Origin: a virus
Taxonomy: Duplodnaviria > Heunggongvirae > Uroviricota > Caudoviricetes
DNA: 41,474 nt
Strand: one strand, 5' to 3'
IMG/VR virus record: IMGVR_UViG_2563366877_000003
Coordinates: 1-41,474 of that record
Positions 33,245 to 38,001 of this stretch are shown here, one piece after another; position 1 is the stretch's first letter; each line of letters opens with the position of its first letter. Made by a program: the position numbers and the translations under genes. The notes beneath the pieces are model-generated. The model made no database searches and was not told where the DNA came from. It was given only the letters and a program-made list of their open reading frames with translations.

Positions 33245-33526
33245 TCAGGCCTCGAAGAATTCGCCGTTCTTCGGGGCTTTTTCTTTTGTCAGGTAATTGG
33301 CAAGCCGCTTAGTCAGCTCAGCCATTTCATCGTCTTCGATTCCGTATTCCAGAACAGCCAGCATCATGCTTACCTGCGAGAAGAAACCATTCTTCCATCG
33401 GCTTACCTGATATTCAGGAATCCCCATTGCTCGAGCGAATGTCTTCTGCCCCATCAGTGCCAGTTTGTTCAGCAAGGCTGACTCGATGCGAGCCGCTTTC
33501 TTGCTTTTAGTTGCAATAGTACCCAT
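33245..33526 (-). CDS. cII: CII-like transcriptional activator
   Basis: 93 aa; ARIESALLNKLALMG...YQVSRWKNGF...MMLAVLEYGIEDDEMAEL aligns with lambda CII. Confidence 0.75.
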   Translation of the reverse strand: MGTIATKSKKAARIESALLNKLALMGQKTFARAMGIPEYQVSRWKNGFFSQVSMMLAVLEYGIEDDEMAELTKRLANYLTKEKAPKNGEFFEA

Positions 33527-33642
33527 AGATAATTTCCTTAATGATTAGATAGAGTTGGCTTCGCAAAGAAACGCAAAACCATAGAGATTTGTTTCTGGTA
33601 ATGCCCTTTTTCAGGGCGGGGATGTGTAAGAGCGTTAATAAC

Positions 33643-33873
33643 TTAAGCGGCCATTAATTCAGGCCAGATGCTTTCCCAATCAACCGGATGAAGGTCTTTG
33701 CGAGTCACTTCACCATTGCTGAACTTCTCAATCAGAACACAAAGTGCTGCGCCCAATTCATGATTACGGCTAAGTGCTTTCCTCAAATAGCCGATAGAAG
33801 TTCCGCACTTGGTGGCAAATTCTCTCTGCTCTTCCAGTGAAAGGGAGTTCAGATACAAGCGGAGTTCTTCCAT
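33643..33873 (-). CDS. cro: Cro-like HTH regulator
   Basis: 76-aa ORF divergent from cI across the operator region, HTH-like segment FATKCGTSIGYLRKALS; assignment mainly positional. Confidence 0.55.
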   Translation of the reverse strand: MEELRLYLNSLSLEEQREFATKCGTSIGYLRKALSRNHELGAALCVLIEKFSNGEVTRKDLHPVDWESIWPELMAA

Positions 33874-33907
33874 TTGCTATCTCCTTCCCGTTGTTGAATA
33901 AGATGAG

Positions 33908-33963
33908 TTTACCTGTAGGTAAAAAGCAAATCAATACCCATAGGTTATTTACCGGCAGGTAAT
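33908..33963. promoter_or_regulatory. Right operator region (OR) between divergent cro and cI
   Basis: Palindromes TTTACCTGTAGGTAAA (33908..33923) and TTTACCGGCAGGTAAT (33948..33963), with a weaker site between. Confidence 0.6.
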
Positions 33964-33981
33964 CAAAGATAGAATTAAATC

Positions 33982-34668
33982 ATGGATAAATACGAACAAA
34001 GACGACTAAGGCTGATAGAGATAAGAGACCGATTCTGTAATGGAAAGGCCTCAGAGTTGGCTCGTCGAATAGAAAGGGAACCATCATACGTTTCCAGAAT
34101 GCTGTATCCGGAAGGAAAAAGCGGAAAAAAACGCATTGCTGACGATATGATGGAACTAATTGAAAAATCTTTTAATCTCCCACGCGGATGGATGGACATG
34201 CTTGCAGATGGTAAAGCTGGAGCTACAGACCATCTTGAGTTTGCGGGTAACGTTCGTGCGGGTTTTGTTCCGGTAATTGGTGAAGCCGTTTTGGGAGTTG
34301 ATGGCTCAGTGGATATGATTGAATTCAGATCCGGTTGGTTAAGCATCTACAGCGGCGATAAAGATGCTTACGGTCTGAAGGTTAAGGGTGACAGCATGTG
34401 GCCAAGGATTCAGTCAGGAGAATATGTTGTTATTGAACCAAATACGCCAGTACATCCAGGTGATGAAGTCTTTGTAAGGACCAAAGACGGTCACAACATG
34501 ATAAAGATCATGAACAAAACAAGAGACGGTGATTATCAGTTTAGTAGCATAAACAGTGATCACCGCCCAATCACTCTTCCTGTTGAAGAAGTTGATAAAA
34601 TGCATTTTGTTTCAGCTATTGTGAAACACACCAGGTACGTAGACCAGGACGATCTGCCAAAAGTTTGA
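33982..34668 (+). CDS. cI: CI-type prophage repressor (HTH plus S24 LexA-like autopeptidase domain)
   Basis: 228 aa; C-terminal S24 domain with GDSMWP serine and downstream lysine; N-terminal HTH; divergent from cro. Confidence 0.9.
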   Translation: MDKYEQRRLRLIEIRDRFCNGKASELARRIEREPSYVSRMLYPEGKSGKKRIADDMMELIEKSFNLPRGWMDMLADGKAGATDHLEFAGNVRAGFVPVIGEAVLGVDGSVDMIEFRSGWLSIYSGDKDAYGLKVKGDSMWPRIQSGEYVVIEPNTPVHPGDEVFVRTKDGHNMIKIMNKTRDGDYQFSSINSDHRPITLPVEEVDKMHFVSAIVKHTRYVDQDDLPKV

Positions 34669-34979
34669 GGATAAAGCAGCAAGTGTTTATACCCGGCATA
34701 GTAGTCGCTGTTGTAATCATCTGCTTCATATGGGCAAAGTTATCTCCTGTAAGCTCTAAGCATACAGCTGAACTCATGAAGAAGAAGCATCTTATACATG
34801 AGGCAGAATCGATAATTAAAAAGTTCAAAGGCATGTCATACGACGACATGTCATCAGAGCAGATTGCTATGTATAAATGCGCCATTGAGCGTCTTGACTA
34901 CTTAAACGGACTCAAACCCAAACACACCCCAGTAGAATCAAAATTGCCGCAATGGCCAAGCAATCCAAATAGCTTCTGA
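34665..34979 (+). CDS. Small single-pass membrane protein apparently co-transcribed with cI (rex/sie position)
   Basis: 104-codon ORF beginning with TTG overlapping the cI stop (TTGA), or GTG at 34683; hydrophobic segment FIPGIVVAVVIICFIWA then charged domain; followed by a terminator. Confidence 0.4.
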   Translation: MRIKQQVFIPGIVVAVVIICFIWAKLSPVSSKHTAELMKKKHLIHEAESIIKKFKGMSYDDMSSEQIAMYKCAIERLDYLNGLKPKHTPVESKLPQWPSNPNSF

Positions 34980-34990
34980 CATCTCCTTTC

Positions 34991-35013
34991 AGCCCGCAAA
35001 GCGGGCTTTTTTA
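34991..35013 (+). terminator. Intrinsic terminator ending the cI transcript
   Basis: AGCCCGC-AAA-GCGGGCT followed by TTTTTTAT. Confidence 0.65.
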
Positions 35014-35032
35014 TATCAATCCAAAAAATTAA

Positions 35033-35115
35033 TTACCTGAAAATTCAAGCAGGTAAACTCTTACATCAATTTTATTTACCTACAGGTATAGACAGCTGTT
35101 TTACCTGTAGGTATA
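35033..35115. promoter_or_regulatory. Left operator region (OL)
   Basis: TTTACCTACAGGTATA (35075..35090) and TTTACCTGTAGGTATA (35100..35115), plus TTACCTG-N10-CAGGTAA (35033..35056); same half-site as OR. Confidence 0.6.
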
Positions 35116-35125
35116 TTTTAGGCCA
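35089..35125 (+). promoter_or_regulatory. Early leftward promoter pL
   Basis: TAGACA (35089..35094), 17-bp spacer, TATATT (35112..35117); sequence from about 35125 (ATCAGCAGGACGCACTGACC) matches the lambda pL transcript start. Confidence 0.6.
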
Positions 35126-35157
35126 TCAGCAGGACGCACTGACCACCATGAAGGTGA

Positions 35158-35188
35158 TGCTCTTAAAAATTAAGCCCTGAAGAAGGGC
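35158..35188 (+). promoter_or_regulatory. nutL site (boxA and boxB)
   Basis: boxA TGCTCTTAA (35158..35166) and boxB hairpin GCCCTGAAGAAGGGC (35174..35188), as in lambda nutL. Confidence 0.8.
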
Positions 35189-35345
35189 AGCATTCAAAGC
35201 AGAAGGCTTTGGTGTGTGTGATACGAAACGAAGCATTGGCCGGAAGTGCGAATCCGGATTAGCTGTCAATGTGCCATTGCTGGGTGTTTTCGTTCAGGAC
35301 TACGACTCCCACACACAACCAAAGCTAACTGACAGGAGAATCCAG

Positions 35346-35672
35346 ATGGATGCACAAACACGCCGCCGCGAACGTCGCGCAGAGAAACAGGCTCAATGGA
35401 AAGCAGCAAATCCCCTGTTGGTTGGGGTAAGCGCAAAACCAGTTAACCGCCCTATTCTCTCGCTGAATCGCAAACCGAAATCACGAGTAGAAAGCGCACT
35501 GAATCCGATAGACCTTACAGTGCTGGCTGAATACCACGAACAGATTGAAAGCAACCTGCAACGTATTGAGCGCAAGAATCAGCGCACATGGTACAGCAAG
35601 CCACGCAGTGAAATGGGTGTGACTTGTGTTGGTCGCCAGAAAATGAAATTAGGCAGCAAGCCACTTATTTGA
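35346..35672 (+). CDS. N: Antiterminator N
   Basis: From internal ATG 35346: MDAQTRRRERRAEKQAQWKAANPLLVGVSAKPVNRPILSLNRKPKSRVESALNPIDLTVLAEYH..., matches lambda N; the ORF-track start is a GTG extension. Confidence 0.9.
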   Translation: MDAQTRRRERRAEKQAQWKAANPLLVGVSAKPVNRPILSLNRKPKSRVESALNPIDLTVLAEYHEQIESNLQRIERKNQRTWYSKPRSEMGVTCVGRQKMKLGSKPLI

Positions 35673-35683
35673 GAGGAATTAAT

Positions 35684-36307
35684 ATGTCATCAATCCGCTT
35701 AACTACGAGAATGAAAGAGGAAATCGCTCGTAACGCTTTAATTAAGTCTGGGGTTTTCACTGAACTTGAAGAAGTAACAAAGTTAAAGAACCAGCTTGCA
35801 CTTGACGCCAGAGTTATTGCGTTTGGCGGTAAAAAGAAAACTGAGGAAGTGGATCAGTTATCATCTAAGTTTGTAGCTATAAGTGAAGAACTTGAAAAGA
35901 TGGGATGTTCATTTTACTCATACGATTTTCGTTCTACTTCAATTTATCTGACTGTATCTGGCAGAAGGGTTGGATGGCATTCATATGGGAAAGACGGCAA
36001 CGGCGAAGATATATTTCTCCCTACTCCAACCAAAGATAAATGCATGTTTGACGCAGAACACGAAATAACAAAAAGGTTTGATGAAATCTGCGCATTGCAA
36101 CAAAAACTTGAAGCCAAGAAAAAGGATATCGAATCAAATGTATGGGCTGCTTTAAACTCAGTCACAACAGTTAAGCGACTCATTGAAGTTTGGCCTGAAA
36201 GCAAAGAATTGCTACCAAAAGAAGCAGATAAAGCAAGTACAGCACTTCCTGCTTTACGGGTAGAGGATTTGAATAAGATGATTGGACTTCCTTCCGAGGC
36301 CGCATAG
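35684..36307 (+). CDS. Hypothetical early-left protein immediately downstream of N
   Basis: 207 aa from ATG 35684 with GAGAGGA upstream; soluble, Lys/Glu-rich; no recognised motif. Confidence 0.5.
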   Translation: MSSIRLTTRMKEEIARNALIKSGVFTELEEVTKLKNQLALDARVIAFGGKKKTEEVDQLSSKFVAISEELEKMGCSFYSYDFRSTSIYLTVSGRRVGWHSYGKDGNGEDIFLPTPTKDKCMFDAEHEITKRFDEICALQQKLEAKKKDIESNVWAALNSVTTVKRLIEVWPESKELLPKEADKASTALPALRVEDLNKMIGLPSEAA

Positions 36308-36323
36308 TCGGCCTTTATTTTTG
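36297..36323 (+). terminator. Intrinsic terminator (tL1-like)
   Basis: AGGCCG-CATAGT-CGGCCT followed by TTATTTTTGG. Confidence 0.6.
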
Positions 36324-36441
36324 GCATAAACAACAGAATAAACACAGCACTGTGTATTCATTCCAACGAGTGAATACACGGAGCAATGTCGCTCGTAACT
36401 AAACAGGAGCCGACTTGTTCTGATTATTGGAAATCTTCTTT

Positions 36442-36468
36442 GCCCTCCGATGTGAGGGCAATTTTTTT
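36442..36468 (+). terminator. Intrinsic terminator
   Basis: GCCCTC-CGATGT-GAGGGC followed by AATTTTTTT, just before the next gene's GGAGG and ATG. Confidence 0.6.
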
Positions 36469-36480
36469 GACGGAGGATAT

Positions 36481-36792
36481 ATGAAATTACGTGTCTGGCA
36501 TATCCCGCAAGTACCTATGAAGCCGTTCATTGTAGAAGTGGCAAGTGTTGAAGAGGGTGTTCGCCTGATGGACGCACTGGCTGATTATGATGCCTTTCAG
36601 TATGACAACAACATCAAGCCTGACTACTGCAATGCTAACGGCCTTGAGATGTGGGATGAGAGCCTTACTGATGAAGATTTATCAGAGATGGGGCTTACGG
36701 ATCGCTGGGTAGATTGGTACAGCGAATGCCAATGTTACGACGACCCACGTAAATATCTCGAAAGCCTGAAAGAAGAAACATCAGCCGCCTAA
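36481..36792 (+). CDS. Small acidic hypothetical protein
   Basis: 103 aa from ATG 36481 (MKLRVWHIPQVPMKPF...), GGAGG upstream; rich in Asp/Glu. Confidence 0.5.
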   Translation: MKLRVWHIPQVPMKPFIVEVASVEEGVRLMDALADYDAFQYDNNIKPDYCNANGLEMWDESLTDEDLSEMGLTDRWVDWYSECQCYDDPRKYLESLKEETSAA

Positions 36793-37294: not shown

Positions 37295-37395
37295 TGGTGA
37301 CCGCGAAGGAATGCGGGTATGCCTTAATTTGTCCCGAGTCGAAGTATTAAATCAGCGTTATTTCCTTGGGCCGTGTCCATTCTGAGAACAATCAT

Positions 37396-38001
37396 ATGAG
37401 CAAAGAATTTTACGCAAGACTGGCAGCTATTCAGGAGAATCTGAACGCGCCAAAGAATCAGTACAACTCATTCGGCAAATATAAATACAGAAGCTGCGAA
37501 GATATTCTTGAAGGCGTTAAGCCGTTACTGAATGGTCTGTTTTTATCAATCAGCGATGAAGTTGTGTTGATTGGTGATCGGTATTACGTGAAAGCCACGG
37601 CAACTATTACCGATGGCGAAAACAGTCATACGGCAACCGCCCTTGCACGAGAGGAAGAAAGCAAGAAAGGAATGGATTCTGCACAAGTTACTGGAGCTAC
37701 AAGCTCTTATGCACGCAAGTATTGCCTCAATGGTTTGTTCGGCATAGATGATGCGAAAGATGCAGATACAGACGAGCATAAACATCAGCAGAACGCAGCA
37801 GCAAAGCAATCAAAACCATCACCTACACCTGAACAGGTTCTAAAAGCATTCACTGACGCAGCATTGCAGAAAAACACCGTGGAAGAGCTTAAACAGGCGT
37901 TCGCCAAAGCGTGGAAGATGCTCGAAGGCACACCGGAGCAGCACAAAGCGCAGGACGTTTACAACATCAGACGAGACGAATTAGAAGGAGCGGCTGCTTA
38001 A
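37396..38001 (+). CDS. erf: Erf single-strand annealing recombinase
   Basis: From ATG 37396: MSKEFYARLAAIQENLNAPKNQYNSFGKYKYRSCEDILEGVKPLL..., closely matches recalled P22 Erf. Confidence 0.85.
   Translation: MSKEFYARLAAIQENLNAPKNQYNSFGKYKYRSCEDILEGVKPLLNGLFLSISDEVVLIGDRYYVKATATITDGENSHTATALAREEESKKGMDSAQVTGATSSYARKYCLNGLFGIDDAKDADTDEHKHQQNAAAKQSKPSPTPEQVLKAFTDAALQKNTVEELKQAFAKAWKMLEGTPEQHKAQDVYNIRRDELEGAAA

Follow-up and report, generated by a model that had tools for sequence, protein, structure and literature searches.

Sequence evidence for an mEp043-type immunity cassette next to a lambda-type nutL leader and N gene in a mosaic lambdoid prophage

Introduction

How did an immunity region foreign to lambda come to be joined to lambda-type nutL and N sequences at the edge of the pL promoter, and is the repressor specificity that it encodes a new one? 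These questions are raised by a stretch of 41,474 nucleotides from a virus of the Caudoviricetes (IMG/VR record IMGVR_UViG_2563366877_000003), referred to below as the window. Our analysis indicates that the region is very probably a lambda-style cI/Cro switch of the type found in coliphage mEp043, carried as an exchangeable cassette (about 33652 to 35115) by a lambdoid prophage that is itself mosaic and has virion genes like those of P22 and Sf6.

Results

Genes of the immunity region

The plus strand of the window corresponds to the leftward strand of lambda. Along it lie cII, nutR, cro, a 108-bp OR region, cI, orf104, a terminator, the OL/pL region (35033 to 35124), the nutL leader and N. 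The cII gene (33245 to 33526, minus strand) is P22 C1-like (Pfam Phage_CII, E=7e-30) and lies outside the immunity cassette; a putative CII-binding site of pRE, TTGC-N6-TTGC, was read from the sequence at 33501 to 33514 on the plus strand and is also annotated in mEp043. The lambda-type nutR (33603 to 33634, minus strand) consists of boxA CGCTCTTA at 33627 to 33634 and boxB GCCCTGAAAAAGGGC at 33603 to 33617, and alignment with lambda and 434 showed it to be an island of identity between unrelated cro and cII sequences. The remainder of the window was also mosaic, with virion genes like those of P22, Sf6 and IME10 and with early and late genes like those of HK544, HK446 and Sf101. The whole window was covered by no single phage record.

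The cro open reading frame (33643 to 33873, minus strand) encodes 76 amino acids. Its product was assigned to PHROG 35 (transcriptional repressor) and matched the PDB Cro chains 8CO2 and 8C7K with an E value of about 1e-10, and it had no significant match to lambda Cro. The cI repressor (33982 to 34668, plus strand; 228 amino acids) belongs to PHROG 4. At its C terminus the protein has an S24 autopeptidase domain (Pfam Peptidase_S24, PF00717, E=1.4e-17), in which Ser138 of a GDSM motif aligns with the serine of the lambda GNSM motif; the motif spacing suggests Lys175 as the dyad lysine. Similarity to lambda cI was confined to 31% identity over 55 amino acids of the protease domain. Neither gene is thus a lambda allele, as had been predicted. 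The orf104 frame (34665 to 34979, plus strand; PHROG 10450, unknown function) encodes a small protein with a hydrophobic N terminus, which is labelled hypothetical in mEp043. It occupies the place of rexAB in lambda or hex in 434, and it is predicted to be cotranscribed with cI. A terminator scan found an intrinsic terminator of the immunity operon, a 7-bp GC-rich stem and then a T run, at 34991 to 35013 on the plus strand.

Operators and promoters

A pattern search found exact matches to TTTACCNNNNGGTAWA only at 33908 to 33923, 35075 to 35090 and 35100 to 35115, and the number expected by chance was 0.00 (100 shuffles). When mismatches were tolerated, the copy at 33948 to 33963, with one mismatch, was added. 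OR1 (TTTACCTGTAGGTAAA, 33908 to 33923), which is palindromic and matches on both strands, overlaps the -10 element of pR. OR2 (AATACCCATAGGTTAT, 33933 to 33948) was found by eye and is degenerate, with 4 mismatches; it overlaps the -35 element of pR and abuts that of pRM. OR3 (TTTACCGGCAGGTAAT, 33948 to 33963) overlaps the -35 element and the spacer of pRM. On the other side of the region, OL2 (TTTACCTACAGGTATA, 35075 to 35090) overlaps the -35 element of pL, and OL1 (TTTACCTGTAGGTATA, 35100 to 35115) overlaps its -10 element. The spacing is 25 bp both between OR1 and OR2 and between OL1 and OL2. The nonlambda half-site that OR and OL had been predicted to share, TTTACC-N4-GGTA(A/T)A, was therefore exact at 33908, 35075 and 35100 and weaker at 33933 and 33948.

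According to the promoter scan, pL (35089 to 35117, plus strand) scored 10/12, with TAGACA at 35089 to 35094, a 17-bp spacer and TATATT at 35112 to 35117. The mEp043 record annotates the same span as putative PL. The pL start, the A at 35125, was placed by homology to the annotated first transcript nucleotide of 434 and HK542. A putative pR (33906 to 33934, minus strand) was recognized by eye, with the -35 element TTGATT at 33929 to 33934, a 17-bp spacer and the -10 element TAAACT at 33906 to 33911. Its consensus score of 8/12 is weak and under the threshold of the promoter scan, which thus did not report it; it is positioned over OR1 and OR2 exactly as pL is over OL1 and OL2, and its transcript would be expected to begin at about 33899 on the minus strand. 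A putative pRM (33948 to 33975, plus strand), supported by both the promoter scan and the sequence, consists of TTTACC, a 16-bp spacer and TAGAAT. Because the ATG of cI lies 6 nt past the -10 element of pRM and is not preceded by a Shine-Dalgarno sequence, cI is probably translated from a leaderless message, as it is in lambda.

A divergent repressor and cro pair on either side of a three-site OR (33908, 33933 and 33948) that overlaps pR and pRM, with a second operator cluster, OL1 and OL2, over pL, is the arrangement of a lambdoid switch. With lambda, the region shares the gene order, the tripartite OR, the position of the operators over the -10 and -35 elements of pL and pR, the likely leaderless cI, an accessory gene after cI and the terminator of the immunity operon. 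The operators themselves differ, being 17 bp in lambda (TATCACCGCCAGTGGTA) and 16 bp in the window (TTTACC-N4-GGTAAA). The cI N-terminal domain and Cro of lambda are unrelated to those of the window, which also has only two canonical OL sites and no rex genes. Neither the 17-bp operators nor the cI and cro genes of lambda immunity were thus found in the window.

A third OL site at the 15-bp spacing seen in OR (35060 to 35075) was rejected, since a single poor half-site is present there. An inverted-repeat search found a split repeat, TTACCTG-N10-CAGGTAA, at 35033 to 35056, a candidate site whose half-sites are separated by one extra helical turn; a substitution was found inside its left half-site in one variant prophage.

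The N-terminal domain of cI belongs to no Pfam family. A MarR helix-turn-helix match at amino acids 22 to 41 was below threshold (Pfam, E of about 0.1), searches of NCBIfam gave only weak matches to LexA/UmuD, and a PDB sequence search with cI found no relative. A single-sequence AlphaFold2 model of cI, of low confidence (pLDDT 40), placed helices at residues 23 to 32 and 36 to 41, and the domain may adopt a helix-turn-helix fold. Relatives of the domain were found in SfV, cdtI, Stx2c, Mannheimia and Pseudomonas phages, and a related GTACC half-site is present in the OR of SfV. We found no published footprint or biochemical characterization of the mEp043 operators in the literature. It is conceivable, and in our judgment unlikely, that this domain and TTTACC-N4-GGTAAA form a recognition class never characterized structurally or biochemically, with the split site at 35033 to 35056 as a functional third OL operator. 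If so, the displacement of its half-sites by one helical turn would imply an unusual mode of binding or looping.

The join at the pL edge

In the alignment to lambda, no similarity was found upstream of 35124. Unbroken identity starts at this position, one base before the pL start, and the segment from 35124 to 35647 was 94.1% identical (blastn). The lambda-type pL leader and nutL (35124 to 35188, plus strand), with boxA TGCTCTTA at 35158 to 35165 and boxB GCCCTGAAGAAGGGC at 35174 to 35188, form the left-hand conserved flank. N (35346 to 35672, plus strand; Pfam N36, E=1.5e-26) was 91% identical to lambda N: residues 1 to 60 are identical, residue 64 is the one substitution among the first 86, and the roughly 22 residues at the C terminus differ. 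The N arginine-rich motif and boxA and boxB at both nutL and nutR, the elements of lambda-type N/nut antitermination, are all present and are identical or nearly identical to those of lambda. The original prediction that the sequence matches lambda from the pL start through nutL and N thus agrees with the alignment from 35124 on and went slightly too far for the 3' end of N.

To what extent the join coincides with the promoter boundary depends on the phage used for comparison. The pL regions of twelve phages were aligned at +1 of the transcript. Five unrelated operator sets (lambda/HK542; 434/Sf6/HK633/HK446/Huey; mEp213; Louie/phi458; mEp043/window) all join the same leader, ATCAGCAGGACGCACTGACC and on to nutL, within 1 to 14 bp of +1. 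Against lambda the break falls at -1, whereas against the other four types the common sequence reaches upstream to about -9. This stretch, TTTTA[G/A]GCC, begins at the base right after OL1. In the window, positions -9 to -1 (TTTTAGGCC) match the flank of the 434/Sf6 type and not that of lambda. Position 35121 is G or A among prophages with mEp043 immunity, a polymorphism that makes the stretch identical to the 434 type. A join exactly at +1 would therefore hold for the lambda comparison only. On these comparisons, the pL-edge join appears to be a standard cassette boundary common to many lambdoid phages rather than a singular event. The pL comparisons and the GenBank annotations of HK542 and 434 suggest that this boundary is already a recognized one.

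A unique, recent illegitimate recombination between lambda itself and a foreign phage, exactly at +1 of pL, would also place the start of lambda identity at -1, and it could draw on the spacer between nutL and N, which is lambda-like in the window and not in mEp043. However, the same join is found in mEp043, in 52 E. coli prophages and in four other immunity types. Since positions -9 to -1 are 434/Sf6-like and the C terminus of N is nonlambda, the flank is a common lambdoid segment and not lambda proper. We consider such an event very improbable, and the pL-edge join is better read as the shared cassette boundary.

Identity with the mEp043 immunity type

The region from 33600 to 35200 (1,601 bases) was 99.4% identical to that of mEp043, with nine base differences. 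The mEp043 records (JQ182734/NC_019706/PV340537), from the Kameyama collection, represent two independent GenBank depositions, both of which were compared. All residues of cI (228/228) and Cro (76/76) were identical, and one residue differed in orf104. Every operator half-site was identical as well; within the operator regions, differences were limited to the spacers and to a single central base of OL2. The published qPCR primers for mEp043 cI matched the window exactly. The pL promoter, the terminator and the way in which the region joins the nutL leader are also common to both. The two phages differ between nutL and the ribosome-binding site of N, where about 230 bp of mEp043 are unrelated to the lambda-like spacer of the window, and in the replication and virion modules. 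Among 5,426 complete E. coli genomes, the cassette was present in 52, full-length every time.

Immunity typing of the mEp collection distinguished 19 lambdoid groups (Kameyama et al. 1999, summarised in PMC11893012). A further paper (PMC3442831) assigns mEp043 to a different immunity group from the rest of the phages used there. The immunity type of the window thus appears to be distinct from that of lambda, as had been suggested, yet it is already known as the mEp043 type. That the repressor and operators represent a previously unknown specificity might be argued from the operators, which are unlike those of lambda, 434, mEp213, Louie and 933W/phi24B, and from a cI N-terminal domain with neither a Pfam family nor a sequence relative in the PDB. 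This reading is hardly credible and, at the level of sequence, is refuted by the identity of cI, Cro and every half-site to those of mEp043, a phage in GenBank with an immunity group of its own, and the type is common in E. coli genomes. The comparison of operators with known immunity types, which had been proposed as a check, therefore removed the novelty, an outcome that the original prediction had itself allowed for, and left the mosaic junction standing.

Relatives of the repressor

The relatives of cI separate its two domains. Compared with the cI of the phi24B/933W type, the nearest relative over the full length, identity was 49% overall, and the likeness was confined to the C-terminal two-thirds, concentrated after residue 80 or so. 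The oligomerization/S24 domain is closely related, and these phages also have a two-site OL. In contrast, their N-terminal domain is different (BLASTP found almost no identity over about 80 N-terminal residues), and their annotated operators have half-sites of the GAAC/GTAC type, so that the window does not carry 933W/phi24B immunity.

A tblastn search with residues 1 to 80 of cI identified Escherichia phage CharmingMan (PP925830). The N-terminal domain of its cI was 81% identical and its Cro 49% identical to those of the window, whereas its S24 C-terminal domain is of another type and cI as a whole was 41% identical. The OR of CharmingMan contains the sites ATTACCCACAGGTAAT, AATACCCACAGGTAAT and TTTACCAACAGGTAAC at 25- and 15-bp spacings, with AATACCCACAGGTAAT as the homologue of OR2, and two OL sites lie 25 bp apart over a TATATT -10 element. 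Its early-left leader differs, diverging right after the -10 element with no lambda nutL after pL. Since CharmingMan shares the N-terminal domain and the operators while 933W/phi24B shares only the C-terminal domain, operator specificity seems to track the cI N-terminal domain.

Natural variation at the operators

Besides the window and the two mEp043 records, the alignment of OR and OL took in eight E. coli prophages, eleven natural variants in all. Although 22 of the 220 intergenic positions were variable, none of the 59 half-site positions in the five 16-bp sites was, including those of OR1 (hypergeometric P=7e-4), whereas 7 of the 20 central N4 positions varied (P=1e-3); given the partial relatedness of the variants, the P values serve only as a guide. 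This pattern is that expected of contacted half-sites around an uncontacted center, and the variation in the population supports the predicted operator model.

Boundaries of the cassette

The exchangeable cassette (about 33652 to 35115) comprises all of cro but the last two codons, OR, cI, orf104, the terminator and OL. Its limits follow from sibling prophages with the same flanks and other cassettes, from CharmingMan and from prophages that diverge near nutR. The prophages of E. coli NCTC9112 and NCTC11121 match the window at about 96.6 to 98.6% identity on both sides of the cassette, as far as 33651 and again from 35115/35117, and have other repressor/cro pairs in between. Three prophages with mEp043 immunity diverge from the window just past nutR; a lambda-type cII is annotated in two of them, both of those whose cII lay in the compared stretch. 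As judged by these comparisons, the cassette is delimited at its cro end by the last two codons of that gene plus nutR, and at its OL end by the outer edge of OL1/pL.

Fast divergence by descent of the operator and repressor segment beside a slowly evolving leader, with no recombination, would fit the coevolution of operators and repressors expected under diversifying selection for new immunities and the relationship of the cI C-terminal domain to that of 933W, but it is scarcely tenable: identity falls from about 94 to 99% to undetectable within a few bases, no likeness of Cro to lambda Cro can be detected, flanks that are about 96.6 to 98.6% identical surround unrelated cassettes, and CharmingMan pairs the same operators and N-terminal domain with an unrelated leader and C-terminal domain, so that exchange is needed.

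Discussion

The arrangement described here points to the following working model of the mEp043-type switch. Dimers of cI would bind the 16-bp operators through the TTTACC/GGTAAA half-sites, leaving the 4-bp center uncontacted, and this binding may be cooperative. Occupation of OR1/OR2 and OL1/OL2, which cover the -10 and -35 elements of pR and pL, would keep the lytic operons off. With OR2 abutting and OR3 overlapping pRM, the cI-orf104 transcript would be subject first to positive and then to negative autoregulation; this transcript, presumably leaderless, would run as far as the terminator at 34991. Self-cleavage of cI through its S24 C-terminal domain, stimulated by RecA, is predicted to lead to induction, with the Ala-Gly pairs at residues 79 to 80, 87 to 88 and 92 to 93 as candidate cleavage sites. 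Cro would work at the same operators as cI.

The same dependencies may explain where the cassette ends. The operators would be tied to their own cI and cro, and the nut sites to a matching N, here of the lambda type, so that crossovers leaving a viable phage would be expected in just two short conserved segments, one separating OL1 from nutL and the other separating cro from nutR. Taken together, the two constraints would make the cassette end sharply, toward nutL with the outer edge of OL1/pL and toward nutR with the 3' end of cro. The near-identical flanks would supply the homology for phage recombinases. Rad52-like phage recombinases have been shown to make lambdoid mosaics from short, diverged homologies (PMC3945230), and repeated cotransfer of cI and cro has been reported in the same phage collection (PMC9836094). 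From the sequence pattern, we infer that the cassette was exchanged by homologous recombination at its flanks.

The main value of these results lies in the correct annotation of the region, which is a clean textbook case of the swap of a lambdoid immunity cassette between conserved nut-site flanks. As by-products, they provide precise boundaries of the cassette and an explicit operator model for the mEp043 immunity type, backed by the variation in the population and by CharmingMan, a second phage that shares the DNA-binding domain. Judging from the identity of repressor and operators, the prophage in the window is expected to share homoimmunity with mEp043, as well as with about 1% of the E. 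coli prophages that have been sequenced.

Mosaic boundaries of the immunity cassette and the N region

The right-hand limit of the cassette was examined at the end of cro, whose final two codons and stop (GCC GCT TAA, 33643-33651, minus strand) are common to 434 cro and to prophages with other cro genes. Therefore, the right-hand boundary lies within the 3' end of cro and not in the intergenic region.

On the other side, the stretch between nutL and the ribosome-binding site of N (35219-35311) was lambda-like in the window, whereas in mEp043 (L001, 4620-4823) its place is taken by a longer insert, roughly 200 bp in length and unrelated in sequence. Many E. coli prophages of the same immunity type also carry such an insert. 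The stretch is a second small mosaic patch, within the N leader. At the 3' end of N (35604-35672), the last 22 codons or so were unlike lambda and common to mEp043, while the remaining N hardly differed from lambda. Divergent C termini of a similar kind are reported for gp24 of P22 and L (PMC8022706). Directly after N, within 35684-36792, lie a gene of the Nmad5 family (E=3e-72 for nucleotide-modification-associated domain 5) and a gp17-like superinfection-exclusion gene (36427-36792), and then an Erf recombinase (37366-38001).

Accessory gene and repressor

The start of orf104 (34665-34979) overlaps the stop codon of cI, and the immunity terminator lies downstream of orf104. It encodes a small protein with a hydrophobic N terminus (PHROG 10450, annotated "unknown function") and is a candidate prophage-expressed accessory gene, placed where other phages have rexAB, hex or stk.

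Immediately upstream of OL2, a split inverted repeat, TTACCTG-N10-CAGGTAA (35033-35056), contains the operator half-sites with a TTACC-to-GGTAA core gap of 14 nt versus the usual 4 nt, longer by one helical turn than in the 16-bp operators. The site is identical in mEp043; its left half-site is substituted in one E. coli variant, and CharmingMan has no counterpart.

Judged from its sequence, cI (33982-34668) is a chimera of two domains. Residues 1 to about 78 had no match in Pfam or PDB and form a type of their own. The CharmingMan repressor has the same N-terminal domain joined to a different C-terminal domain, and the 933W/phi24B repressor has a C-terminal domain closely related to that of the window cI. 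In SfV, the cI N-terminal domain shares 39% identity with that of the window repressor. The OR of SfV (L025, the record of this phage, 1150-1175) contains TGTACC-N5-GGTACA, a TACC-type half-site related to that of the window but differently spaced. Together, the SfV half-site and the N-terminal likeness hint at a wider family of related repressor specificities.
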